Shown one piece after another: positions 6,782-27,497 of a DNA stretch of 32,000 bases. How positions within the stretch are numbered: position 1 is the stretch's first letter; every line of letters begins with the position of its first letter. A program made the translations under genes and the position numbers. The stretch comes from Archaeoglobus fulgidus DSM 4304 (GTDB lineage: Archaea; Halobacteriota; Archaeoglobi; Archaeoglobales; Archaeoglobaceae). The notes below the pieces were generated by a model that searched no databases, was not told the origin of the DNA, and saw only the letters and a program-made list of their open reading frames with translations. The stretch is taken from positions 120,001 to 152,000 of the forward strand of contig NC_000917.1 in the NCBI RefSeq assembly GCF_000008665.1, in the 5' to 3' direction.

Positions 6782-6787
6782 TGCGAA

Positions 6788-7087: not shown

Positions 7088-7104
7088 GGGCTGGTGGGAG
7101 TAGC

Positions 7105-7566
7105 ATGCGGAAGGTTTTAACCCCTATTTTTTTGATTCTCATTCTAATCCCTGCAATCTCGCAGGGATTCAACCTTCTCTCCCCTCAACCCGCTGGAGTC
7201 AACAAAACAGTTTACATCGAAGCCTTCCAGTTCGGATACAGAGTTGTTGCAATTCAGGAGGGAGACAAGCTTTACTACCCCAGCACTCCATCGCTGAAAC
7301 TCAACGCTGGCGACACTGTAACCTTCCATGTTGTCACAAAGGATGTTACTCACGGCTTCACGATTGACGGCATAACAGACGGCATTGCTGAAGAACTGCT
7401 GGTTATTCCCGGAAGAACGCTGGTTGTGGGGCCGGTAACATTCACCGATGTCGGGAAGTACAGAGTCAGGTGTTCGGCAAATTGCGGTTCTCTGCACCCC
7501 TTCATGAGCATTGATATAATTGTCGAGCCCAAAATTCCATACTACGCCCTTTCCGCTTTGCTCTAA
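7105..7566 (+). CDS. cupredoxin-fold protein with CuA-type ligand set (COX2-like domain), N-terminal signal/anchor
   Basis: 153 aa. DVTHGFTI ... VIPGR ... GKYRVRCSANCGSLHPFM gives H-x39-C-x3-C-x3-H-x2-M. A hydrophobic N-terminus and a C-terminal hydrophobic tail are present. Confidence 0.75.
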   Translation: MRKVLTPIFLILILIPAISQGFNLLSPQPAGVNKTVYIEAFQFGYRVVAIQEGDKLYYPSTPSLKLNAGDTVTFHVVTKDVTHGFTIDGITDGIAEELLVIPGRTLVVGPVTFTDVGKYRVRCSANCGSLHPFMSIDIIVEPKIPYYALSALL

Positions 7567-8975
7567 TGGTAGGCTTTGCAGCACTGCTTTACGATGGGAG
7601 TGGAGGGGGAGAAATCAGGTTTAGGGCAAGACTTCTTAAGCCCAGATGGGTTATTTTCCTACTCACAGCGATAAATCTTTCCGTTTTCCTGCTCATAATT
7701 TTCACAGGTCTTTTCGGCAGTGCTGTTGGCAGTGAGAACTTTTCCATTGCCGTTACGTGGATTCTCTGGTTTGCGTTAGTTGAGTTCATGATTCTGTTCG
7801 CTGCAAGAGTCTGGTGTGCCGTCTGTCCCATTCCTGTCATAGGAGAGTGGCTCAAAAGGAGGAGGATTCTGGGAGTGAGGGAATTTGAAAGCAGCTTCAC
7901 TTTTCCCGCAAGATACAGGAACATGTGGATTCCAGCCATTGGCTTCCTTCTGCTTTCCCTGTTCATTCCGTGGATAGTAACCAAGCCCCTCGTTACAGCT
8001 TTGCTCTTCATTTCCCTAATTGCTGTTGCGACGGCAATGTATCTCATCTATCCTCCAAGATACTTCTGCAGGCACGTCTGTCCGGCAAGCGGATACATCG
8101 GCTATCACTCCAATGCCTCCCTCCTTGCTTTGAGGAGTGAGGACAGGGAGAAGTGCAGGAGATGTGAGAAGTTCTGCCTGAAAGGGAGCGAAGAGGGTTA
8201 CGCCTGCCCGTGGAAGCTATATCCCGGAGGGAACGAGGAGAACACCTACTGCGGGCTATGCCTTGAGTGCCTCAGGACATGCAGATACGACAACCTCAGC
8301 TTCAGGCTCAGGTTGCCCTTCGAAGAGCTTTCAAAGAAGGCAGTAAGAGCTGGTAAGGCTCTGAAGCTCGATGAGGCGGCGATGGGATTCATAAGGTTCG
8401 GTCTGGCTATCTTCTACGAGCTTTTCTTCTTCGGCAGCCTCTACTGGCTCAAGGACTTCGGCAACATGGGCAATCCCTATGGAGTGAACTTGGAGAACGC
8501 TTATCTACTCCTTCCATCCTTCTTCGGGATTGTCAAGTGGCTTATATGGGCTGGAATCGTGGTCGGGACAATCGCAGCCTTCGCTGGGCTTTACTACATC
8601 TTCAGCTGGATTGGTGCGAGAATTGCCAAAGTTGACACCAAGCAGCTTTTCGTGGCCCTCAGCTACTCCTTGGCCCCTTACGGTCTCCTTGTGTGGGCTG
8701 GTTTTGCAGTTGGGCTGCTCGCCTACTTCCACATCTATCCATTCAGCGCCTTCCTCGACCCCTTCGGGGTGGAGAAGAATGCCTTTCCAGTGGCGAACGT
8801 CAAGCTCATAATACAGATTCAGGCTCTCTTCATTGCTGCAGGACTTGCTTCTGCAATTGTTGCAACTAAGAGGGTAGCCAAGAGGTTGACAGATAAATTT
8901 GAGGCCCTCACAGCGGTTTACAGCGTTCCTCACTTAATTGCAGCCCTCACGCTGATAAAAATCATAGCGGGGTGA
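7566..8975 (+). CDS. polytopic membrane iron-sulfur protein, NapH/NosR/MauN-type architecture
   Basis: 469 aa. Membrane-proximal motifs WCAVCPIP and FCRHVCPASGY (CxxCP / CxxxCP), plus CRRCEKFC...ACPW and CGLCLECLRTC Cys clusters. There are about 4 TM helices before the clusters and about 5-6 after. The start overlaps the upstream stop (TAATG). Confidence 0.7.
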   Translation: MVGFAALLYDGSGGGEIRFRARLLKPRWVIFLLTAINLSVFLLIIFTGLFGSAVGSENFSIAVTWILWFALVEFMILFAARVWCAVCPIPVIGEWLKRRRILGVREFESSFTFPARYRNMWIPAIGFLLLSLFIPWIVTKPLVTALLFISLIAVATAMYLIYPPRYFCRHVCPASGYIGYHSNASLLALRSEDREKCRRCEKFCLKGSEEGYACPWKLYPGGNEENTYCGLCLECLRTCRYDNLSFRLRLPFEELSKKAVRAGKALKLDEAAMGFIRFGLAIFYELFFFGSLYWLKDFGNMGNPYGVNLENAYLLLPSFFGIVKWLIWAGIVVGTIAAFAGLYYIFSWIGARIAKVDTKQLFVALSYSLAPYGLLVWAGFAVGLLAYFHIYPFSAFLDPFGVEKNAFPVANVKLIIQIQALFIAAGLASAIVATKRVAKRLTDKFEALTAVYSVPHLIAALTLIKIIAG

Positions 8976-8979
8976 GATT

Positions 8980-9360
8980 ATGAAGAAGGAGATTGCTGCA
9001 TTGCTTTTCGTAATCCTGATTTCCGCAATACCTGCATACCTGACCTACGACTACATTGAGTCCAGAAAGGAGAAAAATAACCCGGAGATTGTCATTGAAG
9101 CCCACATCACCGAGTCGGGTGGATTCAAACCCAACTACATTGTCGTTCCCAAAAGCAGCAAGGTAAAGCTCGTGTTTAAAGCTGCCGATGTGACCCACGG
9201 CATATTCATCCCGTCTCTCGGCATCAACGAGCTGATTCCTGCGGGCAAGGAGGTGGTGGTGGAGTTCTACGCCGAGAAAGAGGGGGTTTATCCCTTCATG
9301 TGCTCCGTTTACTGCAGTCCCTATCACAGGTTCATGCGGGGTATCATAGTTGTTGTTTAA
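8980..9360 (+). CDS. cupredoxin-fold protein with canonical CuA spacing (COX2 C-terminal-domain-like), N-terminal TM anchor
   Basis: 126 aa. DVTHGIFIPSLGINELIPAGK...GVYPFMCSVYCSPYHRFM gives H-x34-C-x3-C-x3-H-x2-M. GGGGTGAG lies upstream of the ATG, and the gene starts 4 nt after the upstream stop. Confidence 0.8.
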   Translation: MKKEIAALLFVILISAIPAYLTYDYIESRKEKNNPEIVIEAHITESGGFKPNYIVVPKSSKVKLVFKAADVTHGIFIPSLGINELIPAGKEVVVEFYAEKEGVYPFMCSVYCSPYHRFMRGIIVVV

Positions 9361-9385
9361 TAAGGAGTGCAGAAACATAGTCGAA

Positions 9386-9885
9386 TTAGTTCGGATTACT
9401 TTTCTGACTGCTCCCTTTTCTCAAATTTTTTAAGCAAAGCAGCGTTCGCGCTCCGTGCACCAGCTTTCCTCCGTATTCGCCGGTTATAGCAAAGAATACC
9501 AGAGCCATTGCAAGGGCAGCAAGAGAGTAATCTGTCAGGGAGTGCAGCACAACATATACAACCACGAAAACGTAACCTACGATGCCCGTGATCACCTTTC
9601 TCTGAATTATTGGAACTTTCCTCATATCGTAGCGGTACTTCCAGTCTATAAGCCCTGTAAGCATCGTGAGAGGTGTAACAATTGCAACGAACGACATCAT
9701 CGCCATGCAGCGACATCTACACACGCTGGCAGAATTATGTGGGATACTGGAATGTAGCTCATAAATCTGTCTGACCTGGCAACTAAGGCTAAGGCGAAAG
9801 ATGCCGGTGTTATGCCGTTTGTGAAATGGGTAAGAATTGGATGCAAATTCCTCAGCGTTACAAATCTTACGAGAAGCGGTATCAT
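9386..9885 (-). pseudogene. DUF2231-like membrane protein, apparent frameshift near 9700-9720
   Basis: The N-terminal piece (9885-9697) carries NLHPILTHFTNGITPASFALALVA. The C-terminal piece (9724-9386, other frame) carries ...ITGEYGGKLVHGA. Together they make one ~165-aa 4-TM protein. The family assignment is from memory of the HP..vHfP and GG.LV motifs. Confidence 0.6.
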
Positions 9886-10174
9886 CAGCCGAGTTCCTTC
9901 AGATAGGCTATGATATCGTTCAAGTCCTCATCGCTCATCTGCCACCTTGGCATGCACCAGTCGAGGGTTTCGTTATCATGCTCCCCCCATTTGAACTGGA
10001 CTCAGCAGGACCCTGACAGCAGCCCGGTGGGTAGTAGCGCTCATCACTGTAGCCCATCATTCCGCCACCGTAGCCCATCATGGGCATGTAGCCGTAGGGA
10101 GTCAGGAAGTTCAGCAGGAAAATCACTACCGCTACAATGGCGATTATCACTACAATCAGTTCGGACTTTTCCAT
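9885..10174 (-). pseudogene. Met/Gly/Tyr-rich membrane-anchored protein (paralog of 6788-7087) with a frame change at a homopolymer
   Basis: ORF 10174-9935 encodes a TM segment followed by YGYMPMMGYGGGMMGY. After the G6 run (C6 on + strand, 9983-9988) the -1 frame reads EHDNETLDWCMPRWQMSDEDLNDIIAYLKELG. That frame ends in a TGATG stop/start overlap with the DUF2231 start at 9885. Confidence 0.55.
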
Positions 10175-10212
10175 ATGATTTATTGTAAAGAATTGTTAAA
10201 ATTTTTCTAAAG

Positions 10213-10862
10213 CTATTGCAGCAGCCTCACCAGAGCCATAACCTGATGCAATCCAAAAATCGCCGTTGGAATTGCCGCACAAACTGCTGCCTGCTTTAAT
10301 TCAACATTGCGAGCGTTTTTAAGGGCGAAGGTCCAGATTAAGAAGCTCCAAGCAGTAACGGCGAGGTTCAGGAAGATGGCAGAATAAACGTAGCTGTCGG
10401 GGAAGTGGCTTACAAGTGATTTGACAAGAATTTCCGGATTTGCCGACAGCTCCTGCAGGTCAATTGTAGGGATTGTTGCTTCCTCAACATACTTCAGAGA
10501 CACCGGGATAGTTACAGCAGAGCCAAGCAAAGAGGGCATAAAGCCGTAGCCTGCGAACTCAAAGGTTCTTCTGAGCTCTCCTCTGCCATCAAAAAATGCT
10601 GAAAGACCGTGCATGACTGCAGCGATTATCAGCCACGCAGCAAAGAAACCGAGAAAGGTTGAAACAAGCTGTATGTACGCTCCCGCTATGAAGAAGGATT
10701 TAAGGCTTTCCGGAAGGGCTTGGGAGAGCTTCAGCATAAGCCTGTACTGGTAGAGGGCTGCAAGAAGCGAAATTCGAGAACGATCAATGCTGGTTTTTTA
10801 AGGTTGGTGTTTTGGCTGAGCATCAACCGGAAGAATTCGTCGGGGTTTGTTATTAGCTTCAT
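10213..10862 (-). pseudogene. Yip1-domain-like membrane protein, apparent frameshift near 10740-10780
   Basis: The 174-aa ORF (10737-10213) has 4-5 TM helices. An upstream 43-codon ORF from ATG 10862 (MKLITNPDEFFRLMLSQNTNLKKPALIVLE...) reads like the family N-terminus but lies in another frame. Confidence 0.55.
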
Positions 10863-11005
10863 GCTTGCACGGGACGGCATCGATTTTATAATATTTTGCT
10901 ATTTGCTACTAATGAGTAAAGATTAAATATAGCAAGTGTCAATGATTTTGTGAAGCATGTCGAGTTAGTTGGATGGAGGCTGCGAGAGGGTGGGATGAAG
11001 AAGTG

Positions 11006-11230
11006 ATGAAGTGGCTTGCAGTGGCGATTTGTTTGGCGATGGTTGGGATGGCTGTGATGCCAGCGTTTCAGCCACTAAACTTGGCTTTTGAGCTGTACTA
11101 CGGCCATCACGAATCGCTTCCGATTACGGCTGCCTCAGCAGCGTATGAGGGTATCGTTATCACAGCTACTTTGGCTGCCGCAGCAGCAACTGCGGAATTG
11201 GTGCACCTGTTGTTGCAGCAGTTCTTATAA
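11006..11230 (+). CDS. small hypothetical protein with signal-peptide-like N-terminus
   Basis: MKWLAVAICLAMVGMAVMPAFQP... preceded by GGTGGGATGAAG. I recognised no family, so coding status is uncertain. Confidence 0.3.
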   Translation: MKWLAVAICLAMVGMAVMPAFQPLNLAFELYYGHHESLPITAASAAYEGIVITATLAAAAATAELVHLLLQQFL

Positions 11231-11258
11231 TGTCAAGTCCTATAGCGATAGAATAGCC

Positions 11259-11629
11259 ATGAAACCGTTAGAAAAAGCTCTGTTCATAATCGGGGCTGGA
11301 GCACTGTCAAATTACATGTATTCAATTTTTTGTCATCCAAATACAGTGTCGATCCCGCATTCACAGTTTCAACGATGGTCTTTGCTTACGTGTTAGTCTC
11401 CGGGTTCATGTTGGTATTGGGGATAAAATACGGAAGAACGAAAATATATTCTGTTTGGAAAGCCGGATTGATAATCTTAGCGGGGTTTGCTGTAATATTC
11501 GCAGCCGCTTGGATAGCCTTCACCGGAACGTCTGCTAGTCAGGAAAGGATAGGGCTAGCTAAGAGTTTATCGGTAGTGATGGGTCTGATTGCTGGAGTTT
11601 TGTCAGTTTATGTCCTATCCAAAAGCTGA
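11259..11629 (+). pseudogene. small polytopic membrane protein, possibly frameshifted at a T6 run (11326-11331)
   Basis: ATG 11259 gives MKPLEKALFIIGAGALSNYMYSIF. The hydrophobic reading then continues in the frame of ORF 11330-11629 (SSKYSVDPAFTVSTMVFAYVLVSGFMLVLG...). Alternatively the gene is simply 11330-11629 with a TTG start. Confidence 0.4.
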
Positions 11630-11632
11630 AAG

Positions 11633-12042
11633 TTTTGTTTTTTCGGCAATAATTTTTTCAACTTTCTTTTTGCTTGGGTACTATTTTGCGATTTCGTTTA
11701 TACTGCAAAAATATCCAGTGTAGATCATTTCACTCAAATATTTTTTAATAATGTCGAAGTTTGCCTGATTCGCATCATGGGTGGGGCAACACTTGGTGTC
11801 CCGACTTTCATACTTCTGGCTCTGAATGGCTTTACAGTTGGTCATCAACTTGGCTGTATGAATATAGGTTTAATTGAAAAGTTAAGTATACAATACCCCA
11901 TGGCATTCTCGAAATCCCTGCCATCATCATAGCTGGAGCAGCAGGATTCAAAATTCCGTATGAAATTGCAGCATGGGTTGAAGCCAATGTCACGCTGAAG
12001 ATGGCGAAATTGATGCTGAAGGGTGTTAAATATGAAAGGTAA
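11633..12042 (+). pseudogene. SpoIIM/DUF95-like membrane protein remnant (no start codon, internal frameshift)
   Basis: Frame 1 reads ...HFTQIFFNNVEVCLIRIMGGATLGVPTFILLALNGFTVGHQLG and stops at 11932. Frame 2 reads IPHGILEIPAIIIAGAAGFKIPYEIA and stops at 12042. The NN..v, NG..G and PHGi.EipA blocks match the family as I remember it. Confidence 0.55.
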
Positions 12043-12155
12043 TTGGTAGCTGGAACAGATATGCCAAAGAGCCATCTAAAAGAAAGATTGTCAGATAATA
12101 AATCCCAGCATGTTATCTTAGCAACCTCATCGAATTTATAACGGAATCAGCGTGA

Positions 12156-12487
12156 CGCCAATGTCCGCAAACACAGCCTCCCACATCGTCGCCATTCCTA
12201 TCAGAAAAAGACAAGAAGGTAGGAAAGCAGGATTTACCAAAACAAAATATTCCTGAAAAGCAGGCAGAGGCGAATTCGGACAGAAATGGAACGCTTGAAC
12301 TTCTCGAAAACCTGCTTGATGAGGATGAGCTGACAGTTATGAAAATATTGCTGGAGAACAACGGCATAACTACCCATTGCACTTCAGAACAGGCTTCTCC
12401 CAGTCAAAGATATCTATGATATGCAAAACCTACAGGATACATCTGAGCGACTGGCTGAAAGGTTTGGCGGGAAAAGTGGACTCCTGA
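12156..12487 (+). pseudogene. decayed paralog of the membrane-tethered wHTH regulator (5354-5872)
   Basis: LLDEDELTVMKILLENNGITT aligns with LLNDDEAMVLKIIAENEGITQ. After a frame change, RTGFSQSKISMI aligns with RTDFSNSKMSMI and YRIHLSDWLK with FKVYLSEWVK. About 15 codons of the recognition helix/wing and the whole TM region are missing. Confidence 0.65.
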
Positions 12488-15308: not shown

Positions 15309-15917
15309 TCACTCCCCAACCGTCACACTTCCGTACCACGGAACCCAATTGCCCCATCCTGCAACGTGGCCGAAGGCTGCGTTCATGCCGGTGTAGAAGG
15401 CCATTATCCCGGCCACAACGAGGATTAATATGGCCAGAACACCCAGAACCCTGCCAATTCTCTGGATGGCAAGCGTCGGTGAAAGCAGAGCCGCAAGTCC
15501 TGTGAGGAAGAACATAAGCCCCGCCTCAAGCGGCTCTCTCGTCATCCCGTAGTTCCAGATTACGAAAGCATAGACGATTGTTGGCAGGCCAAGCGGAGCT
15601 ATTGCTCCAGCAGCTCTGATGTCAAGGCCCTTGAACAGAACAACCCCAACAACAAGGCTTGCAATGCCGAACAGTGCGAAAGAGTCTATGAGAACTATGT
15701 TGTTTGAGCCCGGCAGAGGCCAGGTCATCATCCCCCATAGACCGGCGACGAGGGCGTAAATCCCTACACCAATGAAGTACGCTCCCATTCCCCTGTTGCA
15801 GTCATCGTTCCTCTTCCCCCTCACCACATTCATATACACCGCGCACGCTGCAGCAAAGAGTGTTACGCCCAGCAGCATCAGCCACAGGTCGAGCGGGTCC
15901 ATAAACAGCAAGGCCAT
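15309..15917 (-). CDS. polytopic membrane protein (DUF981-like from memory)
   Basis: 202 aa with about 6 TM helices and a MTWPLPGSNNIVLID loop. Function unknown. Confidence 0.7.
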   Translation of the reverse strand: MALLFMDPLDLWLMLLGVTLFAAACAVYMNVVRGKRNDDCNRGMGAYFIGVGIYALVAGLWGMMTWPLPGSNNIVLIDSFALFGIASLVVGVVLFKGLDIRAAGAIAPLGLPTIVYAFVIWNYGMTREPLEAGLMFFLTGLAALLSPTLAIQRIGRVLGVLAILILVVAGIMAFYTGMNAAFGHVAGWGNWVPWYGSVTVGE

Positions 15918-15931
15918 CCCATCACCACCCC

Positions 15932-15955
15932 AAACACTGTTACCTAACAGTGTTT
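15932..15955. promoter_or_regulatory. perfect 11-2-11 inverted repeat AAACACTGTTA-CC-TAACAGTGTTT (two adjacent AACA-N-TGTT palindromes) in a core promoter
   Basis: Read directly. It sits between the TATA-like ATATAAA (minus-strand sense, ~15953-15962) and the start codon at 15917. Confidence 0.6.
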
Positions 15956-16051
15956 ATATTTAACATTATAAGCATTATGCATTTTTGATTGCATTTTCAA
16001 AACCGATTTTAGGCCAACCAAAAACTTTTTAAATTTAGGCTATCCTAAACA

Positions 16052-16064
16052 TAACGGTGTTAAA
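16052..16064. promoter_or_regulatory. operator-like site TAACGGTGTTAAA just upstream of the FTR1 start
   Basis: The site lies ~20 nt downstream of the TATA-like CTTTTTAAATTT (16025-16036) and 2 nt before ATG 16066. Its core AACGGTGTT is a one-base variant of AACAGTGTT. Confidence 0.5.
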
Positions 16065-16065: not shown

Positions 16066-16890
16066 ATGATGGGGCAGATGGTCATAACGCTGAGGGAAGG
16101 GTTTGAGGCTGCACTGCTTGTGGCAGTACTCGTCGCCTACCTCAAGAGGAGCGGAAGGACTGAGGAAGTCAGATTCGCCTACTACGGCACAATTGCGGCA
16201 ATAGCTGCAGGATTTGCGATAGCTACTGCGGTGATAGTTGCCTACGGTGGCCTGCATGGGGAGCAGAAGGAGCTTTTCGAGGGCTTTGCCTCCTACTTGG
16301 CAGTTGGAGTCCTCACATACATGATTCTCTGGATGGCAGGGAAAGACGTCAGGGGAGAGGTTGAGAGAAGGGCAGAGGCCAAATTCAAGTGGGGGATAGC
16401 ATTGATAGCCTTCGTTTTCGTTGTGAGGGAAGTGATAGAGACTGTTCTGTTTCTAACGCCCTTCGCCATCGCAGAATTCACTACTACCGTCATTGGGGCT
16501 TCAGCTGGTGCAGCGGTTGCAATAACGCTTGCAGTGCTGATACTGAGGTTTGAATACAGGATGAGCCTCAGGAGGTTCTTCTATGCAACAAGCGTTCTGC
16601 TGGCTTTCATCGCAGCTGGACTGCTTGGATACGGCACCCACGAGTTCGTGGAGGTTCTTGAAGAAGAGGGATTTGAGCACCCGCTCTTCGAGAAAGCCTA
16701 CAGCCTTGGAATTGACGAGTCGAACCCTCTGCACCACAAGGGGCTGATTGGAGGCATTTTGGCGGTGATGTTCGGCTACTCTGCAAGCATGGAGTGGGTC
16801 AGGCTGATTTTGCAGCTCGGATACCTTGCAGCAATGCTCGGACTAATCCACAGATCTTACGGCAGGGTTACTGAAAGGGCTGAAGTTTGA
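16066..16890 (+). CDS. FTR1/EfeU-family high-affinity iron permease
   Basis: Two REXXE motifs in TM helices (REGFEAALLV and REVIETVLFL) and about 7 TM helices. The start could be GTG 16057 or ATG 16066/16069. Confidence 0.85.
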   Translation: MMGQMVITLREGFEAALLVAVLVAYLKRSGRTEEVRFAYYGTIAAIAAGFAIATAVIVAYGGLHGEQKELFEGFASYLAVGVLTYMILWMAGKDVRGEVERRAEAKFKWGIALIAFVFVVREVIETVLFLTPFAIAEFTTTVIGASAGAAVAITLAVLILRFEYRMSLRRFFYATSVLLAFIAAGLLGYGTHEFVEVLEEEGFEHPLFEKAYSLGIDESNPLHHKGLIGGILAVMFGYSASMEWVRLILQLGYLAAMLGLIHRSYGRVTERAEV

Positions 16891-16952
16891 TTTTTTTCAT
16901 ATTCGAAGATTTTAGGGAAAAGGTAGATGTTGATTGCTGACTAAGTTGGACC

Positions 16953-17375
16953 ATGCAGGAGGTAAAGCAGTGGCCGGTTAAGATCATGCTCGTCCACCCC
17001 AAGGCACCCTTCCTGAAGGGGGAGAAGATAGTCATCGCTGCCGATTGTGCCGTGCTGGTTAACAGAGACATCAGGGACAGGTTTGAGAGCGATGCGGTCA
17101 TCATAGGCTGTCCCATGCTCGAAGACCCCAGAAGGATGTTCGAGAGAATCAAGATGATTGTAGCGGAGAGCGATGCAAAGCTTGAGGTTTACACCATGGA
17201 GGTTCCATGCTGCCACGCACTCCATTTGATGGTTGAGAAGGCGAAGGAGGAGCACGGAAAGCAGACTGAGTCTGAGAAATACATTGTGAGGGTGAGCGGT
17301 GCTGTCGAGCCCTACTCGAAGAAAATTGATGAGAGCATGATTGAGGCTGAGAGGAGAGCCCACAGGGGACACTGA
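16953..17375 (+). CDS. conserved Cys-containing protein usually found fused to 2x[4Fe-4S] ferredoxin domains
   Basis: 140 aa. The blocks QWPVKIMLVHPKAPFL, IAADCAVL, IIGCPMLEDP and MEVPCCHAL match, from memory, the C-terminal part of a family annotated as 4Fe-4S binding proteins. Here the domain is a separate ORF. Confidence 0.5.
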   Translation: MQEVKQWPVKIMLVHPKAPFLKGEKIVIAADCAVLVNRDIRDRFESDAVIIGCPMLEDPRRMFERIKMIVAESDAKLEVYTMEVPCCHALHLMVEKAKEEHGKQTESEKYIVRVSGAVEPYSKKIDESMIEAERRAHRGH

Positions 17376-17388
17376 GGGGGACGCTGAA

Positions 17389-17676
17389 ATGAAACGGATG
17401 ATTATAGCCATAGACGAGGAGAAGTGCATTGGCTGCGGGAGATGCGTCAACTCCTGCCCCACGGGTGCGCTTGTGCTCAACAACGAGAAGGTAAAGCTGA
17501 AGGATGAAAGGCTCTGCGATGGATACGGCTCGTGCATTGCCGTCTGCCCTTCGGGAGCCCTTTACATCGAAGTTAGGGAAGCAGAGCCCTTCGACTGGGG
17601 ATTGCTGGACAAAATAAGCTTCGAGGACTTTCTGGAAAAGCTTGCCAAGCACTACAGACCTGAAGCTTTGAAATGA
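17389..17676 (+). CDS. 2x[4Fe-4S]-type ferredoxin-domain protein
   Basis: I prefer start MKRMIIAIDEEK at 17389. The clusters are CIGCGRCVNSCP and CDGYGSCIAVCP. Confidence 0.7.
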   Translation: MKRMIIAIDEEKCIGCGRCVNSCPTGALVLNNEKVKLKDERLCDGYGSCIAVCPSGALYIEVREAEPFDWGLLDKISFEDFLEKLAKHYRPEALK

Positions 17677-17689
17677 TTTTTCGTTTTTT

Positions 17690-17702
17690 TTACGGTGTTA
17701 AT
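17690..17702. promoter_or_regulatory. weaker variant of the palindromic site (TTACGGTGTTAAT) upstream of the TATA box of the molybdoenzyme operon
   Basis: The site lies ~10 nt upstream of the TATA-like CTTATATTTTAT (about 17713-17724), and the start codon is at 17776. This position differs from that of the other sites. Confidence 0.35.
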
Positions 17703-17775
17703 TTCCAAAACCCTTATATTTTATCAAGTAGTAAACATTGTTAGCCAGAAAGGTTCTGGCAAGAGGAGGTGGAAA

Positions 17776-18318
17776 ATGGAGAACGGCGACAGATACGTTT
17801 ACGTTGTGGATGTTTCGAAGTGCTACGGCTGCCTTTCCTGCGTTGCTGCATGTGCCGCTGAAAACAACGTTCCCGTCGGCTACTTCCGCACGTGGGTTGA
17901 GAGATATGCAATGAACGGAAGGGTAGCCTTCGTGCCAAAGATATGTAACCACTGTGATAATCCATCTTGCGTCCACGCCTGTCCAGTCAATGCCACCTAC
18001 AAAACCGAGGAAGGCTTGGTTCTGATTGACGACGAGATTTGTATTGGGTGTGGTGCGTGCATACAGGCTTGCCCCTATGGAGCGAGGTTCAGAAACCCCG
18101 TTAAGGGCACGGCTGACAAATGCACCCTCTGCAACCACAGAATTCCAGAAAGGCTCCCGGCCTGCGTCGAGTCGTGCCCAACCTCTGCGAGGGTTTACGG
18201 CAAAATGAGCGATAAGGCGGTGAAGGAAATACTCTCCAAGAAAAACGCTGTGGTGCTTAAGGCTTACACGGGCAACGAGCCCCATACCTATTACGTAAGC
18301 CTTACGGGGGTGGAGTAA
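17776..18318 (+). CDS. molybdopterin oxidoreductase 4x[4Fe-4S] electron-transfer subunit (TtrB/PsrB/NrfC type)
   Basis: I prefer start MENGDRYVYVVD at 17776, with GGAGGTGG upstream. Four Cys groups: CYGCLSCVAAC, CNHCDNPSCVHACP, CIGCGACIQACP, CTLCNHR...CVESCP. Confidence 0.9.
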   Translation: MENGDRYVYVVDVSKCYGCLSCVAACAAENNVPVGYFRTWVERYAMNGRVAFVPKICNHCDNPSCVHACPVNATYKTEEGLVLIDDEICIGCGACIQACPYGARFRNPVKGTADKCTLCNHRIPERLPACVESCPTSARVYGKMSDKAVKEILSKKNAVVLKAYTGNEPHTYYVSLTGVE

Positions 18319-19404
18319 ATGCTGTGGAGCTATCCCGAAGGTTTTGCCTACTTCAACGAGTTTGCCCAGAGCATAATCTGGGAGCCAGTAGCCTTCTCCT
18401 ACGCACTGCTTATTTCTGGGGCCGATTTGCTTTTGCTCGCCGCATTAGCTCTTCTCTCAGGCTACCTCAGAAGGGCAATACCCATGTTCCTCATTCTGGG
18501 GCTCTCCTTTTTCTCCGTCATTCTTCTCGGCCCGCTCGCCGATTTGGCGTTACCTCACAGGGCTACGGAGATACTGACGAGGCCTCATCTGGCATCGACG
18601 GAAATGCATCCGGGCATTTCTGTAATGGCTCTATACGGAGGGTTGCTCTGGCCGCTGACCTTCATAGTTGCGTTAATCTTCGCGCTGCTTTACTTCAGCT
18701 ACCCCATGCACAAGAAGGGCGGAACCTTCAGCTTCCTCTCTTTCGGAGTCAAAAGTGAGGAGAGCTACGAAAGGCTGAAGCCGGCGATGAAGGTTTTAGC
18801 TGCAATCCTCGTTCCGCTCTCTGCCCTCTGGACGATATATCCCGGAATGCTGTTCTTCTCTCAGACGTGGATTTACGCCTGGAAGAACTGGGGGCTGATG
18901 CTGCCAATGTTCTTCGGCGAAACCTTCATTACAGCAACAGGAACAGCTCTCATTCTCTACTACCTCGAAAGGATGGAGGACGAAAGAATAAGGTATCCCC
19001 TGCTGCAAATTCACGGAGCTGCAGCCATAGCTCTGGCTGGAGTGCTAATTCTCCAGATGTTCATCTGGGGAATGTGGGGCAACCCGAATTTTGCTGCTGT
19101 AGTACCAATGATGCAGGCTGCTGCGGTAATTTTCCTGCTGACCTTCATCCTGACTCTGGTTTCTGCGAAGTATGAAGCGATAACACCTATCGTTCCGGTG
19201 CTGGCTCTCTTCGGCGTTGTGGTGAACAAGTGGAATCTGATAATCAATGGACAGCTAATTTCAAGGGCTGGAATGGGAGTTTTAGAGCCGGAGCTGGCAC
19301 CGAACTGGCTTGCTGAGGCAGTCTCACCCATAGCATTGGCAATACTTCTGCTGGTGATTTTAAGCTACATATTTCCAATGGAGGTGGAGGAAGATGCAGC
19401 TTAG
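18319..19404 (+). CDS. NrfD/PsrC/TtrC-type integral membrane quinol-interacting subunit
   Basis: 361 aa with about 8-9 TM helices. The ATG immediately follows the upstream TAA, and the gene sits between the FeS and catalytic subunits. Confidence 0.8.
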   Translation: MLWSYPEGFAYFNEFAQSIIWEPVAFSYALLISGADLLLLAALALLSGYLRRAIPMFLILGLSFFSVILLGPLADLALPHRATEILTRPHLASTEMHPGISVMALYGGLLWPLTFIVALIFALLYFSYPMHKKGGTFSFLSFGVKSEESYERLKPAMKVLAAILVPLSALWTIYPGMLFFSQTWIYAWKNWGLMLPMFFGETFITATGTALILYYLERMEDERIRYPLLQIHGAAAIALAGVLILQMFIWGMWGNPNFAAVVPMMQAAAVIFLLTFILTLVSAKYEAITPIVPVLALFGVVVNKWNLIINGQLISRAGMGVLEPELAPNWLAEAVSPIALAILLLVILSYIFPMEVEEDAA

Positions 19405-22400
19405 CAGGAGGGATTTTATTAAGGGTCTCGTGGCTGTTGGCTCGGCATCAGTTTTCCTCGCAGGTTACTCGGAAACAGTTGACAGGCTGGTTAAGCCGAG
19501 ATACACAGAGGTGAAGCCGGACTCCGTTGGCAGGATTGTGCACTCAGCCTGCCTCGGGTGCAATGTAAGGTGCGGCATAAGGGTGAACGTCGTCCAGAGA
19601 GGAGGGATGGAGGTAGTTGAGAGGATTTCGGGCAATCCCTATCACGTTTACAACCGATACGTTTCGAAGGAAAAGCAGAGCAGAAGATACGAGCCTCTGC
19701 CCTACAACACACCAATCACTGAGGGGCTGAAGTATTCGGGAACTCTCTGTGCGAGAGGGGAGGATGGAATACACTACCTCTACGACCCCTACAGGATTAT
19801 TGTCCCGCTGAAAAGGGCAGGACCGAGAGGGAGCGGAAAGTTCAAGCCAATTACCTGGGAGCAGCTGATAAACGAGGTTGTAAACGGAGGAGTTATTGAG
19901 GAAACGGGAGAGAGGCTGCCGGGATTGAAGGAACTCTTTGCATACGGAATTCTCAGCGAAGCCGGATTCGACGCCAATGCCGTTTTGAGCGAGATGAAGA
20001 AGGACGTCGATGCAATCATGGAGATTGCCAAGGACGATACGAAGAGCTACGGCGAATTGACGGAGGCTATAAACAACTTCAAGGCAAAGTGGAGTGCAAA
20101 GCTCGGCGAAAAGGGCTTGAAGCTTGAGGATATTCTCATCGACCCCGATAGGCCCGATTTAGGAACAAAAGCCAACCAGCTCGTTTACATGAGGGGAAGG
20201 GGACAGGGTCATGCGGACTACTTCTACCAGCGGTGGACCTATGCTTTCGGCAGCGTGAACTGGCTGAGGCACACCTCGTCATGCCAGCTCGGCTACTACG
20301 CGGGAAACAAGATATGGTCAGGCTACCACGATGTGCAGGCTGACCCGATTGGGGCAAAGCTCCTCCTAATGGTGGGAGCCCAGATGGGCAGGCTGCATCC
20401 CGGCGCTACGGGGCAGGGATTGATAGTTGAGAGGGCTGCAGAGGGGGAGCTAAAGGTTTACTACGTCAATCCAACTGCTCCAAGAACAACAGCAAACGGA
20501 AACATAGTCTGGGTTCCGATAAGGCCCGGCACGGATGCTGCATTCGCCATGGCTCTGCTTAGAGTCATGTTCGAGAGGGGTTACTACGACGCAGAATTTC
20601 TCTCATACGCAAACACTGATGCTGCAAGGAAAGCTGGCTACCCCTTAAACACGAACGCATCGTGGCTCGTGATTTGGGAAGGTGATAGAAAGGGAGAGTT
20701 TCTGAAGGGAGAGGACATAGGGCTTGGCAGCGACAATCCGGTTGTTTACGCCGGAAGCTTCGTAACGAACGACAGCGTCGAAAAGGCGGAGATATTCTTC
20801 GACGGCTATGTGGAAACGAAGGAAGGGAAGAGGAGAGTCAAATCAGCCCTTCAGATTCTGAAAGAGGAGTGCTTCAGCAGGAGCGTGGAAGAGTGGTGCG
20901 AGATTTGCGGAGTTGATGTGGCTGTAATATACGAGATTGCTGAGGAAATCAGGAAAGCCATGCCCAACTGCGGAACCATAGTTCACAGAGGAGCTGGCAT
21001 GCACACCAACGGAGAATACAACGTCTGGGCTCTGAGATGTATCGACATGCTCATCGGAAACATTCACAGGAAGGGCGGGCTCATGACGAGAGCTTCACAC
21101 ACGAACTACAACAAAGAGCTCTACTACGTTGACAAATCAAAGTTTGGAGAGCCTGTGAGGTGGGGGCCGCCAATAGACAGGCATAAAGTTGCCTACGAGG
21201 ACAGCCTCGAATACTGGATGAAGAAGAAGAGGGGTGAGAACCCCTATCCAGCCAAGCGCCCGTGGTATCCGCTAACGCCAGAAGAGAGCTATACAGAAAT
21301 GTTCGCCGGAATTGCGGAGGAGTATCCCTACCCAATCAAGGCCCTTATTATGTACTACGCCAACCCCGTTCTTTCGGCTAACTTCGGAGTTAAGTTCATA
21401 GAGGTGCTGAAGGACACATCAAAGCTCCCGCTCTTCATAGCCATAACCACATCGATAAACGAGACATTCCTCTATGCAGACTACATCGTTCCTGACACCA
21501 TGTATCTCGAAACCGGCACCATGGGAATCAACTACCTCTACGCAACCAGTGCGAGTGTTACGCTGGCGGAATACTGGAGAAGTCCGGCAGTAATGCCCAT
21601 GACTCAGCTCGTAGGCACCTGTCCCAACGGACATCCCAAATACGCTTCAATGTGGGAGTTCCTCATTGACATTGCGCTCAAGCTGAAGATGCCCGGTTAC
21701 GGCAAGGGGGCTGTGAAGGGAGTGGGAGCTTACGACGGGCAGAAGTTTGATCTTTACTGTGCGTGGGAGTACATAATGTACGTTTTCGCCAACGCAGCGA
21801 TGGATGCTAAGAAGCGCGGATTGATTCCTGAGACGGTTAGCGACGAAGAAGTGGACTTTGTCGAGAAGAACTACCCGATTGCGAGGTTCAAGGATATAGT
21901 GCCCAACGAGTGGAGGTATGTCGCCTACGGGCTGGCGAGGGGTGGAGTATTCACGAGGTACGAGGACTCCTTCGACGAGAGGGGGTATTCGAAGAGGAAG
22001 CCGTGGACAGATACCGTGTACTTCTGGAGCGAAAAGCTTGCTAAGGCCAGAAACAGCGTCACCGGAGAGAAGTTCTACGGTGGACCGAAATATCTACCTC
22101 CAGCCACCTACGCACCGCTTGGAACCGAGAGGAGATTCTACGGAACTCCGCTCAGGGAAATTTATCCTGAATCGCAGTATCCCTTCCTCGTCGTGCCGCC
22201 GGGAAGTCCGCTTTTCACCAAACACAGGAGCATGTTCTACTACTGGCTGAAACAGGTGATGCCGGAGAACTTTGCCGTGATTAACCCCGAAGATGCGGAG
22301 AAGCTTGGAATTGAGAGCGGAGATGTCATAAAGATAGTAACTCCCACAGGAGAGCTTGAAGTCGTTGCAGCTGTGGAGCCGACGGTTGTAAAGGGAACAA

Positions 22401-22798
22401 TCGCGATACCTGTGGGAATGGGAAGGTGGGCTGATTCGGCTGTTAAAAAGCCAGCTTACTTCAGGCTGAACGACGGAAGCGTTGCAGCTCTCGTTTCAGA
22501 GCTACCTGATGGAGCTTCTCTCCCCTCGGATGCCGTGAATCCTGTAAAGCAGCTTGACGAGACGAAGAAAAGAATCCTCTTCACGAAGTCCGACAGGAGA
22601 TACTACGACGACCTTGGGATAGACAGCTGGAGGTTCAGCGGAGTTACGCCCAATGTCGTGGCCTGCGTTGACACGTCTCTCGACAACTGGCCACTGCTCA
22701 GCTGGATAGGCGCAGCCCAAGTTTACTTCTTCATTCCGGCAAAGGTCGAGAAGACGGGCAAAAGGAAGAAGTTCGAAATGCCGAACGTGTGGTGGTAG
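19394..22798 (+). CDS. molybdopterin (bis-MGD) oxidoreductase catalytic subunit with Tat signal, TtrA/PsrA-like
   Basis: 1134 aa. Twin-arginine signal MQLSRRDFIKGLVAVGSASVFLAG, N-terminal FeS motif CLGCNVRC...LCARG, and a C-terminal beta-barrel-like block INPEDAEKLGIESGDVIKIVTPTGELEVVA. It overlaps the upstream gene by 11 nt. Confidence 0.9.
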   Translation: MQLSRRDFIKGLVAVGSASVFLAGYSETVDRLVKPRYTEVKPDSVGRIVHSACLGCNVRCGIRVNVVQRGGMEVVERISGNPYHVYNRYVSKEKQSRRYEPLPYNTPITEGLKYSGTLCARGEDGIHYLYDPYRIIVPLKRAGPRGSGKFKPITWEQLINEVVNGGVIEETGERLPGLKELFAYGILSEAGFDANAVLSEMKKDVDAIMEIAKDDTKSYGELTEAINNFKAKWSAKLGEKGLKLEDILIDPDRPDLGTKANQLVYMRGRGQGHADYFYQRWTYAFGSVNWLRHTSSCQLGYYAGNKIWSGYHDVQADPIGAKLLLMVGAQMGRLHPGATGQGLIVERAAEGELKVYYVNPTAPRTTANGNIVWVPIRPGTDAAFAMALLRVMFERGYYDAEFLSYANTDAARKAGYPLNTNASWLVIWEGDRKGEFLKGEDIGLGSDNPVVYAGSFVTNDSVEKAEIFFDGYVETKEGKRRVKSALQILKEECFSRSVEEWCEICGVDVAVIYEIAEEIRKAMPNCGTIVHRGAGMHTNGEYNVWALRCIDMLIGNIHRKGGLMTRASHTNYNKELYYVDKSKFGEPVRWGPPIDRHKVAYEDSLEYWMKKKRGENPYPAKRPWYPLTPEESYTEMFAGIAEEYPYPIKALIMYYANPVLSANFGVKFIEVLKDTSKLPLFIAITTSINETFLYADYIVPDTMYLETGTMGINYLYATSASVTLAEYWRSPAVMPMTQLVGTCPNGHPKYASMWEFLIDIALKLKMPGYGKGAVKGVGAYDGQKFDLYCAWEYIMYVFANAAMDAKKRGLIPETVSDEEVDFVEKNYPIARFKDIVPNEWRYVAYGLARGGVFTRYEDSFDERGYSKRKPWTDTVYFWSEKLAKARNSVTGEKFYGGPKYLPPATYAPLGTERRFYGTPLREIYPESQYPFLVVPPGSPLFTKHRSMFYYWLKQVMPENFAVINPEDAEKLGIESGDVIKIVTPTGELEVVAAVEPTVVKGTIAIPVGMGRWADSAVKKPAYFRLNDGSVAALVSELPDGASLPSDAVNPVKQLDETKKRILFTKSDRRYYDDLGIDSWRFSGVTPNVVACVDTSLDNWPLLSWIGAAQVYFFIPAKVEKTGKRKKFEMPNVWW

Positions 22799-22801
22799 CA
22801 G

Positions 22802-23332
22802 TTGCTTGTGACCATAGGGAGGGCAAAGGTTTACGCAACGCTTTCAAAAATTTTTTACCACCTTTTTTACGATGAGGCAATCCCCAAAGACTGCAGAGAA
22901 ATTATCGAAAAATTCGGCGAAATTGATTTTAATCTGCGTTCTGTGCTCGTTAGGGAGTTGAGGGGCTCTGTTCTTATAAAGGACATGCCTCAATCTCTTG
23001 CTGAAGTTTACGAGAGCGTAATGAAAGACTTCTACGAAAGATACGGCTTTCAGGCTTCAGAGTTGCATGCTGACCATATAGCTGTGGAGCTTGCCTTCAT
23101 GTCGAAGCTGGTTGAGAGGGAGATTAGCTTGGCGCAGCAGATGAAGGAGGAGGAGCTTTACAAAATCAGGGCAGCCCAGCACAGGTTTATAAAGGCTCAC
23201 CTCCAGCCCCTCGTCAAAAATCTCCCCTCTGCACCTCTCCTCAACTTCGTGAGGGATTTCGTCAGAGAGGATGCGAAGTACCTCTACAGCAGCCTCGTAG
23301 GTGAGAAAAATGAGGGAGCTGACAACAATTGA
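22802..23332 (+). CDS. TorD/DmsD-family redox-enzyme maturation chaperone
   Basis: 176 aa with a TTG start. RAKVYATLSKIFY and ADHIAVELAFMSKL match the family signature (DH...ELeFm). Confidence 0.75.
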   Translation: MLVTIGRAKVYATLSKIFYHLFYDEAIPKDCREIIEKFGEIDFNLRSVLVRELRGSVLIKDMPQSLAEVYESVMKDFYERYGFQASELHADHIAVELAFMSKLVEREISLAQQMKEEELYKIRAAQHRFIKAHLQPLVKNLPSAPLLNFVRDFVREDAKYLYSSLVGEKNEGADNN

Positions 23333-24503
23333 CGAAACCTGGAAGCTGATGGACGAGCTGAGGCAGAGATTTTACTTCAAGCGTGAGAGCGAGGAGGTTA
23401 GAGTGGAGGATGCTCTGGACAGGGAGCTGGCGGAGGATGTGTTCGCTGCCAAGGACATGCCGCCCTTCGACATCGCAACGATGGATGGCTATGCCTTGAA
23501 GCTTGAGGATGGTGTCAGGGAGTACAGAATAGTGGGAGAGGTTTACGCTGGAGAGGTTGAGGATAGATTCGTCAACAGAGGGGAGTGCGTTTACATCACC
23601 ACCGGGGCGAAGATGCCCGTCAATGCTGACACGGTTGTCAAGGTGGAGATTGCCGAGGTTGATGGCAGCAAGATGAGGATAAGGGAGAAAGTCAACAGGG
23701 GAAAGTATGTGCTGAAGAAGGGGAGTGAGGTGAAGAAGGGGGATTTGATTCTGCCGGCAAAAACCAGAATAGGCCCGCAGGAGATTGCTGCTTTAATCAG
23801 CGCTGGAGTTGAGAGGGTCAGGGTTTTCAGGAGGCTGAGGGCTGCGGTGTTCTCGAACGGGGATGAGATAAAGAAGGGGATAATTGCGGACTCCAACTCG
23901 GCAATGATTTCCGCCTTTTTGCGGAAGTTGGGCTGCGAGGTTCACTTTCTTGGTGTGGCTGGGGATGATGCGGAAGAAGTAAGGGAGATGGTTGAGAAGG
24001 GTGTGAGAGATTACGATGCTGTTCTTACAAGCGGCGGAGTTAGCGTTGGGGAGAAGGACTACGTGGTTAAGGCTCTGAAGGAGATGGGAGAGGTTCTGAT
24101 TTACAAGGTGAGGCAGAGGCCGGGAAAGCCGATGGTTGTGGCTGTTGTAAATGAAAAGCCCGTTTTTGCCTTGCCCGGAAAGCCTGCTGGCTGCTTTACA
24201 GCCATGCTGTCTCTGAGAAGGTTTTTCGCAGGGGATAAGCCCTTCCCGAAGGTTAGGGCAAGGATTGCGGGAGATGTAAAGCTCCCCACGAAGGGGTTCA
24301 GCTACTTCCTGTTTGTGAAGCTGAGGGACGGTTATGCAATTCCAGCGGGATTCAGGCACTCTCACGTTTCCATCATTCCGTATGAGAAGTATGAGGTGAG
24401 TCTGGTTTCAGCGATGGCGAGAAGTGCAGTTTCAGATGGGTTCGTTGTGACTGACAGGGATTTGAGGGCTGGAGAGGAGGTTGAGGTTTGTTTGTATGAT
24501 TGA
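23310..24503 (+). CDS. moeA: molybdopterin molybdenumtransferase MoeA
   Basis: PPFDIATMDGYAL, ITTGAKMP, SGGVSVGEKDY and PGKPAG are diagnostic MoeA blocks. I prefer ATG 23310, with GGTGA upstream, over GTG 23301. Confidence 0.9.
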   Translation: MRELTTIDETWKLMDELRQRFYFKRESEEVRVEDALDRELAEDVFAAKDMPPFDIATMDGYALKLEDGVREYRIVGEVYAGEVEDRFVNRGECVYITTGAKMPVNADTVVKVEIAEVDGSKMRIREKVNRGKYVLKKGSEVKKGDLILPAKTRIGPQEIAALISAGVERVRVFRRLRAAVFSNGDEIKKGIIADSNSAMISAFLRKLGCEVHFLGVAGDDAEEVREMVEKGVRDYDAVLTSGGVSVGEKDYVVKALKEMGEVLIYKVRQRPGKPMVVAVVNEKPVFALPGKPAGCFTAMLSLRRFFAGDKPFPKVRARIAGDVKLPTKGFSYFLFVKLRDGYAIPAGFRHSHVSIIPYEKYEVSLVSAMARSAVSDGFVVTDRDLRAGEEVEVCLYD

Positions 24504-25804: not shown

Positions 25805-25813
25805 TTTATAAAT

Positions 25814-25859
25814 TTAACAGAGTTAAGGCAAAAGATTTATTAACTTAACAGTGTTAATT
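25814..25859. promoter_or_regulatory. two palindromic sites (TTAACAGAGTTAA at 25814-25826; TTAACAGTGTTAATT at 25845-25859) in the promoter of the sulfite-reductase-like gene
   Basis: Read directly. The centres are 31 bp apart, the sites are interleaved with AT-rich TATA-like boxes (25802-25815; 25831-25844), and the ATG is at 25865. Confidence 0.55.
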
Positions 25860-27389: not shown

Positions 27390-27497
27390 TCTTTTGAGGT
27401 CAATGGGTCTGTCCAGTATGGTGGTAGGCAGGGCACAGCTTCATTATACCTAAGTAATTAGATTCGCTGGAATCCGCACATAGAACTAAAATCTTCA

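Follow-up and report, generated by a model that had tools for sequence, protein, structure and literature searches.

A 13-bp palindrome, TAAC-N3-GTTA, recurs in the promoters of several transcription units within a 32,000-nt stretch of the Archaeoglobus fulgidus DSM 4304 genome (the window, which spans roughly AF0140 to AF0170), and we are almost certain that the sites represent a real, conserved operator that is shared by these promoters and defines a regulon. The conserved theme of this predicted regulon is sulfur assimilation and trafficking, iron-sulfur (Fe-S) cluster assembly and iron uptake, and the putative regulon is conserved across the Archaeoglobaceae and in several other archaeal lineages. 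The explanation that we favor, and regard as probable from the sequence evidence, is that the sites are repressor operators of a sulfur/Fe-S regulon, with the family of O30053, a small helix-turn-helix (HTH) protein of A. fulgidus, as the likely regulator. A previous sequence-only reading of the window had proposed an operator shared among promoters, a regulon and a repressor-type placement of the sites, and this central claim is supported by the enrichment of the motif, the layout of the promoters and conservation across species. The same reading had given the regulon a metal/redox theme (Cu, Fe, Mo, S); the conserved targets instead concern sulfur, Fe-S clusters and iron uptake, and the Cu and Mo targets appear to be lineage-specific.

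Enrichment and consensus of the palindrome

The window holds 4.9 kb of intergenic DNA (41% GC) in about 31 intergenic regions, and all window scans covered the full 32,000 nt. A search for the core AACRGTGTT recovered five matches against 0.32 expected, and none of 100 shuffles reached five, confirming the five copies counted in the sequence-only reading. The 13-mer TTAACANTGTTAA, with up to two mismatches allowed, matched eight times in the whole window where 0.8 matches were expected; seven of the eight matches were in intergenic DNA, compared with 0.4 expected from composition-matched resampling and a maximum of four in any shuffle. Scanning with a position weight matrix (PWM) yielded nine sites, numbered S1 to S9 here, that scored 12.0 to 21.1 bits, while everything else in the window scored 9.1 bits or less. 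All six strings quoted in the sequence-only reading were found where it had placed them, and its caution that the scan was not exhaustive was borne out by two further sites (17732-17744 and the weaker 6761-6773).

The motif was rare in the coding DNA of the window by both the mismatch search and the PWM scan. Sites occur in 5 of the approximately 31 intergenic regions and are missing from most of them, which is not the distribution of the generic promoter element that the sequence-only reading had named as the possibility to be checked. At the gathering score, Rfam models found no match in any part of the window. The sequences flanking the sites are unrelated to each other, and none of the sites lies within a longer repeat family or a mobile element.

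From 39 compiled sites we obtained the consensus wTAAC-R-N-Y-GTTAw, a 13-bp palindrome in which AAC/GTT is kept in 75-76 of the 76 half-sites and the central three bases are merely R-N-Y. The centre column is C or G in 60 of the 76 half-site orientations, with R and Y at the neighboring positions. Because the centre is variable and AAC/GTT is near-invariant in the 39 sites, the core AACA-N-TGTT described earlier is a local version of TAAC-N3-GTTA; the recurring palindrome was upheld, and the exact core was replaced.

Location of the sites relative to promoter elements

The strongest site, S9 (TTAACAGTGTTAA, 25845-25857; 21.1 bits), is a perfect match to the consensus and is located immediately 3' of the TATA-like sequence TTTATTAA (25836-25843), 7 nt ahead of the ATG (25865) of aSir, a small sulfite/nitrite-reductase-like hemoprotein. 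S8 (TTAACAGAGTTAA, 25814-25826; 16.1 bits) lies upstream of S9 at a distance of 31 bp centre to centre, immediately 3' of a second TATA sequence, TTTATAAAT (25805-25813), and the order at this promoter is TATA, S8, TATA, S9, ATG. Among the related loci described below (L-numbers), the TATA-site-ATG order of S9 is also found in L012 and L101, and paired sites upstream of aSir are also found in L101, L017 and L098.

At the gene of the FTR1-family iron permease, S5 (ATAACGGTGTTAA, 16051-16063; 15.7 bits) is downstream of the TATA element (16026-16033) and ends 2 nt ahead of the ATG (16066). A separate 6-4-6 palindrome, TTTAGGCTATCCTAAA (16034-16049), which does not have the TAAC-N3-GTTA form, is located between this TATA element and S5, giving the order TATA, 6-4-6 palindrome, S5, ATG. 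The separate box is kept in L007, L008 and L012, and in the window it stands next to the motif at FTR1 alone. It resembles an operator of the DtxR/IdeR (MDR1) type and is probably the target of another, DtxR/IdeR-type iron repressor, which would place FTR1 under dual control.

Upstream of the DUF981 gene on the minus strand, S3 (CAAACACTGTTAC, 15931-15943; 14.9 bits) and S4 (CTAACAGTGTTTA, 15944-15956; 17.0 bits) form abutting palindromes (15931-15956) between the TATA region and the ribosome-binding site (RBS) and ATG (15917). S1 (ATAACAGTGTTAA, 5999-6011; 17.6 bits) is positioned between the TATA element (5966-5972) and the RBS/ATG (6027) of an operon that begins with a UbiE-type methyltransferase gene. 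The promoter of the ttrB-like gene has two sites 43 bp apart: S6 (TTTACGGTGTTAA, 17689-17701; 13.5 bits) just upstream of the TATA element (17714-17723), and S7 (TAAACATTGTTAG, 17732-17744; 13.3 bits) between the TATA element and the RBS/ATG (17776). The remaining site, S2 (TTAACACAGTTAT, 6761-6773), is weak (12.0 bits), was outside the training set and is of uncertain function; it falls within the final 20 nt of the methyltransferase open reading frame (ORF), 15 nt ahead of the ATG (6788) of a Met-rich ORF. In assigning these positions we re-set the methyltransferase start to ATG 6027 (RBS GAGGTG) instead of 5996, and the ttrB start to ATG 17776 (RBS GGAGGTG) instead of GTG 17695. With these starts, the earlier statement that all of the sites it listed are intergenic holds, and every strong site is non-coding.

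The TATA-then-site-then-ATG geometry was observed at the FTR1, aSir, TusA-operon, methyltransferase and DUF981 promoters, taking the start sites as inferred. Upstream alignments place the site 1-8 bp after TATA and 2-15 nt ahead of the start codon in several species (FTR1, aSir and TusA-operon promoters), or else abutting the TFB recognition element (BRE)/TATA. The sites are beside TATA or between TATA and the start codon at all strong-site promoters, in keeping with the repressor-type placement that had been claimed.

Conservation of the sites in other archaea

Related loci, designated by L-numbers, were fetched via DUF981 (five loci), via aSir homologs and then via the candidate HTH regulator; L017 is Geoglobus ahangari-like, L099 is A. 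fulgidus DSM 8774 and L102 is A. sulfaticallidus. A site directly before the FTR1 start codon was present in five lineages (the window, L007, L008, L012 and L015), and in L015 it was kept although the rest of the promoter had diverged. Sites before aSir(-TusA), often paired, were found in about ten lineages (the window, L012, L015, L017, L018/L098, L020, L021, L022, L101 and L103), and their conservation extends down to 34% protein identity. TusA-(DsrE)-IscS-NifU operons with a site were recovered from four lineages (L099, L012, L101 and L017). Conservation at orthologous promoters, which the sequence-only reading had set as a check, was thus observed at the FTR1, aSir and TusA-IscS-IscU promoters in distant species.

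Further sites precede DsrE-TusA-SQR-like and PALP-ThiS-ThiF genes in L007; ThiF/ThiS, DUF169 and PALP in L103; rhodanese and Aminotran_5-DUF169-ThiI in L017; PAPS reductase in L020; and a cysteine-desulfurase-like/ThiF pair in L104. TauE is also among the genes with a conserved site, and the aSir operon partners in L017, L098 and L020 include ATP sulfurylase (Sat), APS/PAPS-reductase-like proteins, DsrE and PALP. The predicted core of the regulon is accordingly made up of sulfur assimilation genes (aSir-TusA, in some species with Sat, APS/PAPS reductase and TauE), genes for sulfur-carrier chemistry (TusA, DsrE, ThiS/ThiF/JAB/PALP, ThiI and rhodanese), a minimal IscS-IscU Fe-S assembly operon and FTR1 iron uptake.

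The other targets in the window are less widely shared. The DUF981 sites are kept in L007 (95% identity) and missing in L008 (60% identity), the methyltransferase/copper site has a counterpart in L015 alone, before a DUF411...methyltransferase cluster, and other Archaeoglobi have no ttrBCA-like operon (PMC8322695). DUF981, the ttrBCA-like operon and the methyltransferase/copper operon are best seen, from this distribution, as putative lineage-specific recruits in A. fulgidus, plausibly tied in via sulfur supply (tetrathionate/polysulfide reduction) and via copper-thiolate or Fe-S damage.

Since most foreign sites came from the window-trained matrix, we also tested the motif without this bias, on 182 kb of distant loci outside the PWM training. 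Among the 256 possible 4-N3-4 palindromes, TAAC-N3-GTTA ranked first, with 26 occurrences against 4.5 expected (z = 10). The half-sites were enriched at a spacing of 3 alone, with 26 matches compared with 1-4 at the other spacings among 0-8. The control consisted of 785 kb of bacterial-like aSir loci, the distant bacterial homologs that dominated a metagenome search with the aSir alignment; here TAAC-N3-GTTA ranked 141st of 256 (3 observed, 4.9 expected) and was not enriched. A few archaeal-like contigs among the metagenome aSir matches carry the motif.

A small cysteine-bearing HTH protein as candidate regulator

In L012, a site lies at the promoter of the TusA-DsrE-IscS-NifU operon, and at its end this operon has an unannotated gene for a 111-aa HTH protein. 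L012, L099 and L101 all have the HTH gene in fifth place, in a TusA-DsrE-IscS-NifU-HTH operon, and the motif is 2-4 nt ahead of the TusA ATG in all three; the copy in L100 is rearranged and has no TusA. The candidate regulators are small, with lengths of 100 to 140 aa. The A. fulgidus DSM 4304 protein is O30053/AAB91048 (112 aa), whose gene is outside the window and which, from accession arithmetic, is probably AF_0184, about 14 genes past the window end. A profile search returned 2002 matches, indicating a broad archaeal family, with 546 cluster representatives (50% clustering) at E <= 1e-10.

The genes of distant homologs (38-45% identity) in L103, L104, L105 and L106 again have sulfur and Fe-S genes as neighbors, and the motif is present at their own or a divergent promoter. 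Their neighborhoods comprise PALP-ThiS, ThiI, ThiF-JAB and aSir-TusA in L103, Aminotran_5 and ThiF in L104, ThiI in L105, and Mrp/ApbC-like, FeoAB, DtxR and SufBD genes in L106, where a perfect TTAACACCGTTAA is located inside a 69-bp divergent region. Altogether, seven of eight HTH loci from different lineages have the motif at their own promoter or operon, for which the chance probability is about 5e-14 under a random model of 41% GC. These associations make O30053 the probable regulator of the motif. DtxR-family genes adjoin the candidate regulator gene in L100 and L106.

The HTH protein gave weak generic HTH matches (HTH_3, HTH_1 and others) and no match to a curated Pfam or NCBIfam family, and no relative in the PDB was found by sequence or with Foldseek (best Foldseek E = 0.31). 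Its AlphaFold2 model is confident (pLDDT 89) and shows six helices. Among 46 representatives, two cysteines (C93 and C96, in a C93-x2-C96 arrangement) never vary, and the conservation of C5 is at least 90%; in other archaea, the longer members of the family have an extra C-terminal C-x2-H...C-x2-C tail. It is possible, though we hold it somewhat doubtful, that the cysteines sense an Fe-S cluster or sulfide/persulfide. Equally tentative is the broader proposal that the O30053 family is a widespread archaeal Fe-S or sulfide/persulfide sensor that acts as a master repressor via TAAC-N3-GTTA, as a non-homologous analogue of IscR and SufR. At its 3' end, the short HTH gene of Archaeoglobus overlaps with a Cys-rich ORF of 63-66 aa (CxxC...CCxxH...CxxxC; L012:5072-5272, minus strand, 66 aa; L099:10329-10520, plus strand), and this small ORF may be a split sensor module.

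In L099, TusA-aSir and the TusA-DsrE-IscS-NifU-HTH operon are immediate neighbors that converge on each other (7778-12384), and where L099 has the HTH operon the window (25865-32000) has a flavodiiron-ArsR-DUF1858/DUF438-hemerythrin-PAS module. The difference is a strain-level rearrangement that brings the candidate regulator gene next to its predicted targets.

Proposed mechanism and alternative explanations

In the mechanism that we propose, a dimer of the Cys-HTH protein would bind TAAC-N3-GTTA, and the repressor, on or beside TATA or the transcription start, would block the recruitment of TBP/TFB or RNA polymerase. The protein would also autoregulate its TusA-DsrE-IscS-IscU operon, which we infer from the motif at the TusA promoter of this operon and the HTH gene at its end. 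The cysteines (C5, C93 and C96) could bind an Fe-S cluster or sense sulfide/persulfide, and repression would be lifted when sulfur or Fe-S supply is short, a logic like that of bacterial IscR and SufR. In cultures, the transcripts of AF0154-AF0157 amounted to about 0.2 of the average (PMC4543118), which fits a mostly repressed state in sulfide-producing cultures.

Several observations weigh against this proposal. The PWM that recovered most foreign sites had been trained on the window, and the resulting ascertainment bias is only partly offset by the 182-kb test. The L102 locus has the HTH gene and no motif within 8 kb on either side, and an HTH gene within 10 kb is lacking from four of the five aSir-fetched loci (L015, L017, L098 and L020), so that the linkage of HTH gene and motif is frequent and not universal. 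Sites upstream of TATA (17689 and 25814) are also compatible with activation. In addition, AF0141-45 were up with carbon monoxide (CO) and sulfate and AF0154-58 with CO and thiosulfate, and aSir, DUF981 and the TusA operon were not in the listed transcriptome changes (PMC4543118). The targets in the window therefore did not move together in one CO transcriptome, which extra regulators could explain. FTR1 was up together with iron ABC transporters under CO and thiosulfate (PMC4543118); its increase while other members did not respond would be explained by dual control through the DtxR-like box.

The same regulon could be bound by some other factor, of the Lrp/AsnC type or encoded by the DUF7343 winged HTH (wHTH) gene (5354-5872) or the ArsR-like gene (28835-29113) of the window, with the Cys-HTH protein merely co-regulated; we consider this unlikely. 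Archaeal Lrp-type sites are 13-bp 5-3-5 palindromes (abcde-N3-edcba) with an A/T-rich WWW centre. The motif has the 5-3-5 layout, but its three central bases are R-N-Y, mostly with C or G in the middle (60 of the 76 orientations), and an Lrp/AsnC (FFRP) operator was rejected on that composition. The DUF7343 wHTH gene is beside the site-bearing copper cluster in two lineages (the window and L015), the ArsR-like gene is kept near the cluster in L012, and the L102 locus described above would also suit a different factor. However, the DUF7343 and ArsR-like genes are both absent from motif-bearing L017, L098, L020, L103, L104, L105 and L106, and in the window no site is present at the promoter of either gene, whereas the Cys-HTH gene has one at its own promoter or operon in seven of the eight lineages.

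Less probable still is an activator or dual regulator that recruits TBP/TFB from sites upstream of or abutting BRE/TATA. Dual regulators such as IscR are known, and some sites are immediately upstream of TATA (17689 and 25814 in the window, 9957 in L015 and 9933 in L017). The best-conserved sites, however, are mostly downstream of TATA and ahead of the start codon, at genes that appear to have a short leader or none, as at FTR1, at aSir in the window, L012 and L101, and at the TusA operon in four species, where a bound protein would occlude the polymerase; moreover, an upstream site is usually accompanied by a second site that covers the transcription start. It is very hard to credit that the sites are not bound by a regulator at all and represent a generic promoter element, an RNA hairpin in the 5' untranslated region, a repeat or mobile remnant, or a chance effect of A+T-rich DNA. 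The motif is indeed A+T-rich, as is the intergenic DNA at 41% GC, and palindromes are able to fold. Yet composition-matched resampling predicted 0.4 intergenic matches against the seven observed, the sites are confined to five of the approximately 31 intergenic regions, and their flanks are unrelated, with no repeat family or Rfam match. Some sites are upstream of TATA and hence outside transcripts, and an A/U-rich stem of 5 bp closed by a 3-nt loop is not to be expected at the high temperatures at which Archaeoglobus grows. The strict spacing of 3 and the presence of the motif at the same gene families across lineages argue for recognition by a protein.

Comparison with known regulatory systems

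Repressor operators of a sulfur/Fe-S regulon recognized by the O30053 family would resemble several known systems. As with IscR (Rrf2 family; E. coli and other bacteria), the regulator gene is inside the cysteine-desulfurase/scaffold operon that it would control, autoregulation would occur via a palindromic operator overlapping the promoter, three conserved cysteines are candidate cluster ligands, and the regulon joins Fe-S assembly with other Fe/S functions. The HTH candidate differs from IscR in having no Rrf2 match and no sequence or fold relation to it, in the position of its gene (last, not first, in the operon), and in its site, which is a 13-bp TAAC-N3-GTTA at an archaeal TATA/TFB promoter in contrast to the type 1 and type 2 motifs of about 25 bp bound by IscR. 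SufR of cyanobacteria and actinobacteria, whose operators are inverted repeats of the form CAAC-N6-GTTG, is a Cys-ligated Fe-S sensor and an autoregulating repressor of an Fe-S assembly operon with AAC/GTT-type half-sites, but it is a larger, bacterial protein of the DeoR/ArsR type, its half-sites are spaced by N6 rather than N3, and its regulon is limited to suf.

SurR of the Thermococcales is archaeal, couples sulfur availability to transcription via a CxxC redox switch and binds a short GTT/AAC motif over promoters. Its motif is GTT-N3-AAC (extended, GTTn3AACn5GTT), while the half-sites here are in the opposite order (AAC-N3-GTT, with TA flanks), and SurR was rejected as owner of the motif on this inverse order. 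It is also a two-wHTH, ArsR-type protein of about 230 aa that is unrelated to the 112-aa HTH protein, and it targets hydrogenase and S0-reduction genes rather than sulfur assimilation or Fe-S assembly. A. fulgidus MDR1 binds between TATA and the start site and blocks recruitment of the polymerase. The position of the motif between TATA and start resembles this arrangement, and a DtxR-like box adjoins the site at FTR1; the MDR1/DtxR-IdeR operators, however, are of the TTAGG...CCTAA type, belong to another protein family and serve direct metal-ion sensing. This operator type accounts for the box at 16034-16049 alone, and it was rejected for TAAC-N3-GTTA, which has no palindrome of that form. With CysB/CymR/McbR the predicted regulon shares the grouping of sulfate reduction, sulfite reductase and cysteine synthesis genes; these regulators belong to unrelated families (LysR, Rrf2 and TetR) and act at bacterial promoters with other effectors and motifs. 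The HSR1/Phr heat-shock operator is CTAAC-N5-GTTAG, and this assignment was rejected because TAAC...GTTA had two matches at spacing 5 and 26 at spacing 3. The order or spacing of the half-sites or the composition of the centre led us to reject likenesses to Fur-type 7-1-7 and CopY-box sites.

The candidate regulator is outside the IscR, SufR, CysB and CymR families. Literature searches returned nothing on the motif or on the protein (O30053, WP_010877696, AAB91048), and those on archaeal sulfur or Fe-S regulators found bacterial systems alone. The Fe-S-sensing regulators listed in a 2026 review of Fe-S biogenesis are all bacterial, and the review gives none for the MIS and SMS systems of archaea (PMC13066941). 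An operator, a target list and an easily expressed 112-aa candidate make the control of sulfur assimilation and Fe-S biogenesis in archaea directly testable. The system would be a repressor-operator regulon built on an uncharacterized regulator family, with the small HTH protein as the likely archaeal counterpart of IscR and SufR.

Predicted targets and neighboring genes in the window

The layout of the window matches the published locus tags (AF0142-0144, AF0154 = FTR1, AF0157-0159; PMC4543118, PMC8322695). aSir (25865-27175; Pfam NIR_SIR/NIR_SIR_ferr) and TusA (27150-27389; Pfam TusA) form an operon (25865-27389) on the plus strand. The FTR1-family iron permease (16066-16890, plus strand; Pfam FTR1, 3.4e-79) is AF0154-like, and AF0154 is annotated as FTR1 in the supplement of PMC4543118. 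The DUF981 membrane protein is encoded at 15309-15917 on the minus strand (Pfam DUF981, 1.2e-56). The ttrBCA-like molybdopterin oxidoreductase operon (17776-24503, plus strand; assigned with Pfam) encodes an Fe-S subunit, a membrane subunit, a 1134-aa catalytic subunit, a NarJ-like chaperone and MoeA; AF0157-AF0159 have been named tetrathionate-reductase-like (PMC8322695). The methyltransferase/copper operon (6027-9360, plus strand), which is AF0140-0144-like by Pfam, translation and PMC4543118, encodes a UbiE-type methyltransferase, a Met/Gly/Tyr-rich small protein, a COX2-like protein, a NapH-like polyferredoxin and a cupredoxin. Other genes in the window code for a 690-aa CopB-type ATPase, an AF_0155-family protein, a ferredoxin and DUF1648.

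The predicted regulon offers one physiological module for poorly understood genes, namely DUF981, AF_0155, DUF169, the small aSir-TusA pairs and DsrE/TusA beside IscSU. It also suggests that FTR1 (under dual control), the tetrathionate-reductase-like enzyme and the copper-handling genes are wired to sulfur/Fe-S status in A. fulgidus.

L004 and L006 (3826-4161) come from metagenome strains whose FTR1 protein is identical to that of the window. By comparison with the window (16891-18018), they are without AF_0155, the ferredoxin and the 5' portion of ttrB; both ttrB sites are gone as well, and a 99-aa ttrB remnant directly follows FTR1. The Met/Gly/Tyr-rich protein (6788-7087, plus strand; 99 aa, secreted or membrane) has PMMGY repeats and a C-terminal HGCPMMGYW, and a similar PMM-repeat protein is encoded at L015:1048-1659. 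A 41-nt segment at 10053-10093 is 85% complementary to part of 6788-7087 in inverted orientation, which suggests a second paralog on the minus strand. A PIN-domain-like (VapC-type) ORF (24745-25095, plus strand) is located between MoeA and DUF1648; its L099 homolog is directly preceded by a 54-aa ORF, and it may be part of a toxin-antitoxin pair inserted in the cluster. A 143-aa fragment of an IS240-type DDE transposase (4740-5171, plus strand), just left of the wHTH gene, hints at a rearranged AF0140-0176 'redox island'.

The sequence-only reading had put forward regulators encoded in the window (the wHTH at 5354, an 'RHH' at 3518 and the ArsR-like protein at 28835), and in other lineages none of them follows the distribution of the motif. 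The 'RHH' was set aside for having no family match. The wHTH, with no site at its own promoter, was set aside as a two-transmembrane protein with a Met/His-rich loop that is probably copper-related, and the ArsR-like protein as part of a flavodiiron/DUF1858/hemerythrin module without a site. The wHTH (5354-5872, minus strand) is of the MarR/DUF7343 type, with two N-terminal transmembrane helices and the loop MSHHYMMMGPAYMG, and its gene is divergent from the copper-associated operon. A homolog at L015:296-832 adjoins Cu genes (DUF411, SHOCT and a CopB-type ATPase), and the protein may be a membrane-anchored copper sensor. The module at 27701-30967 comprises a flavodiiron protein, an ArsR-like HTH_20 protein (92 aa) and DUF1858, divergent DUF438/hemerythrin/PAS_10, and then a sulfite-oxidase-like Mo domain; it is kept in L012, has no TAAC-N3-GTTA site, and probably forms an independent O2/NO-stress unit under a regulator of its own.

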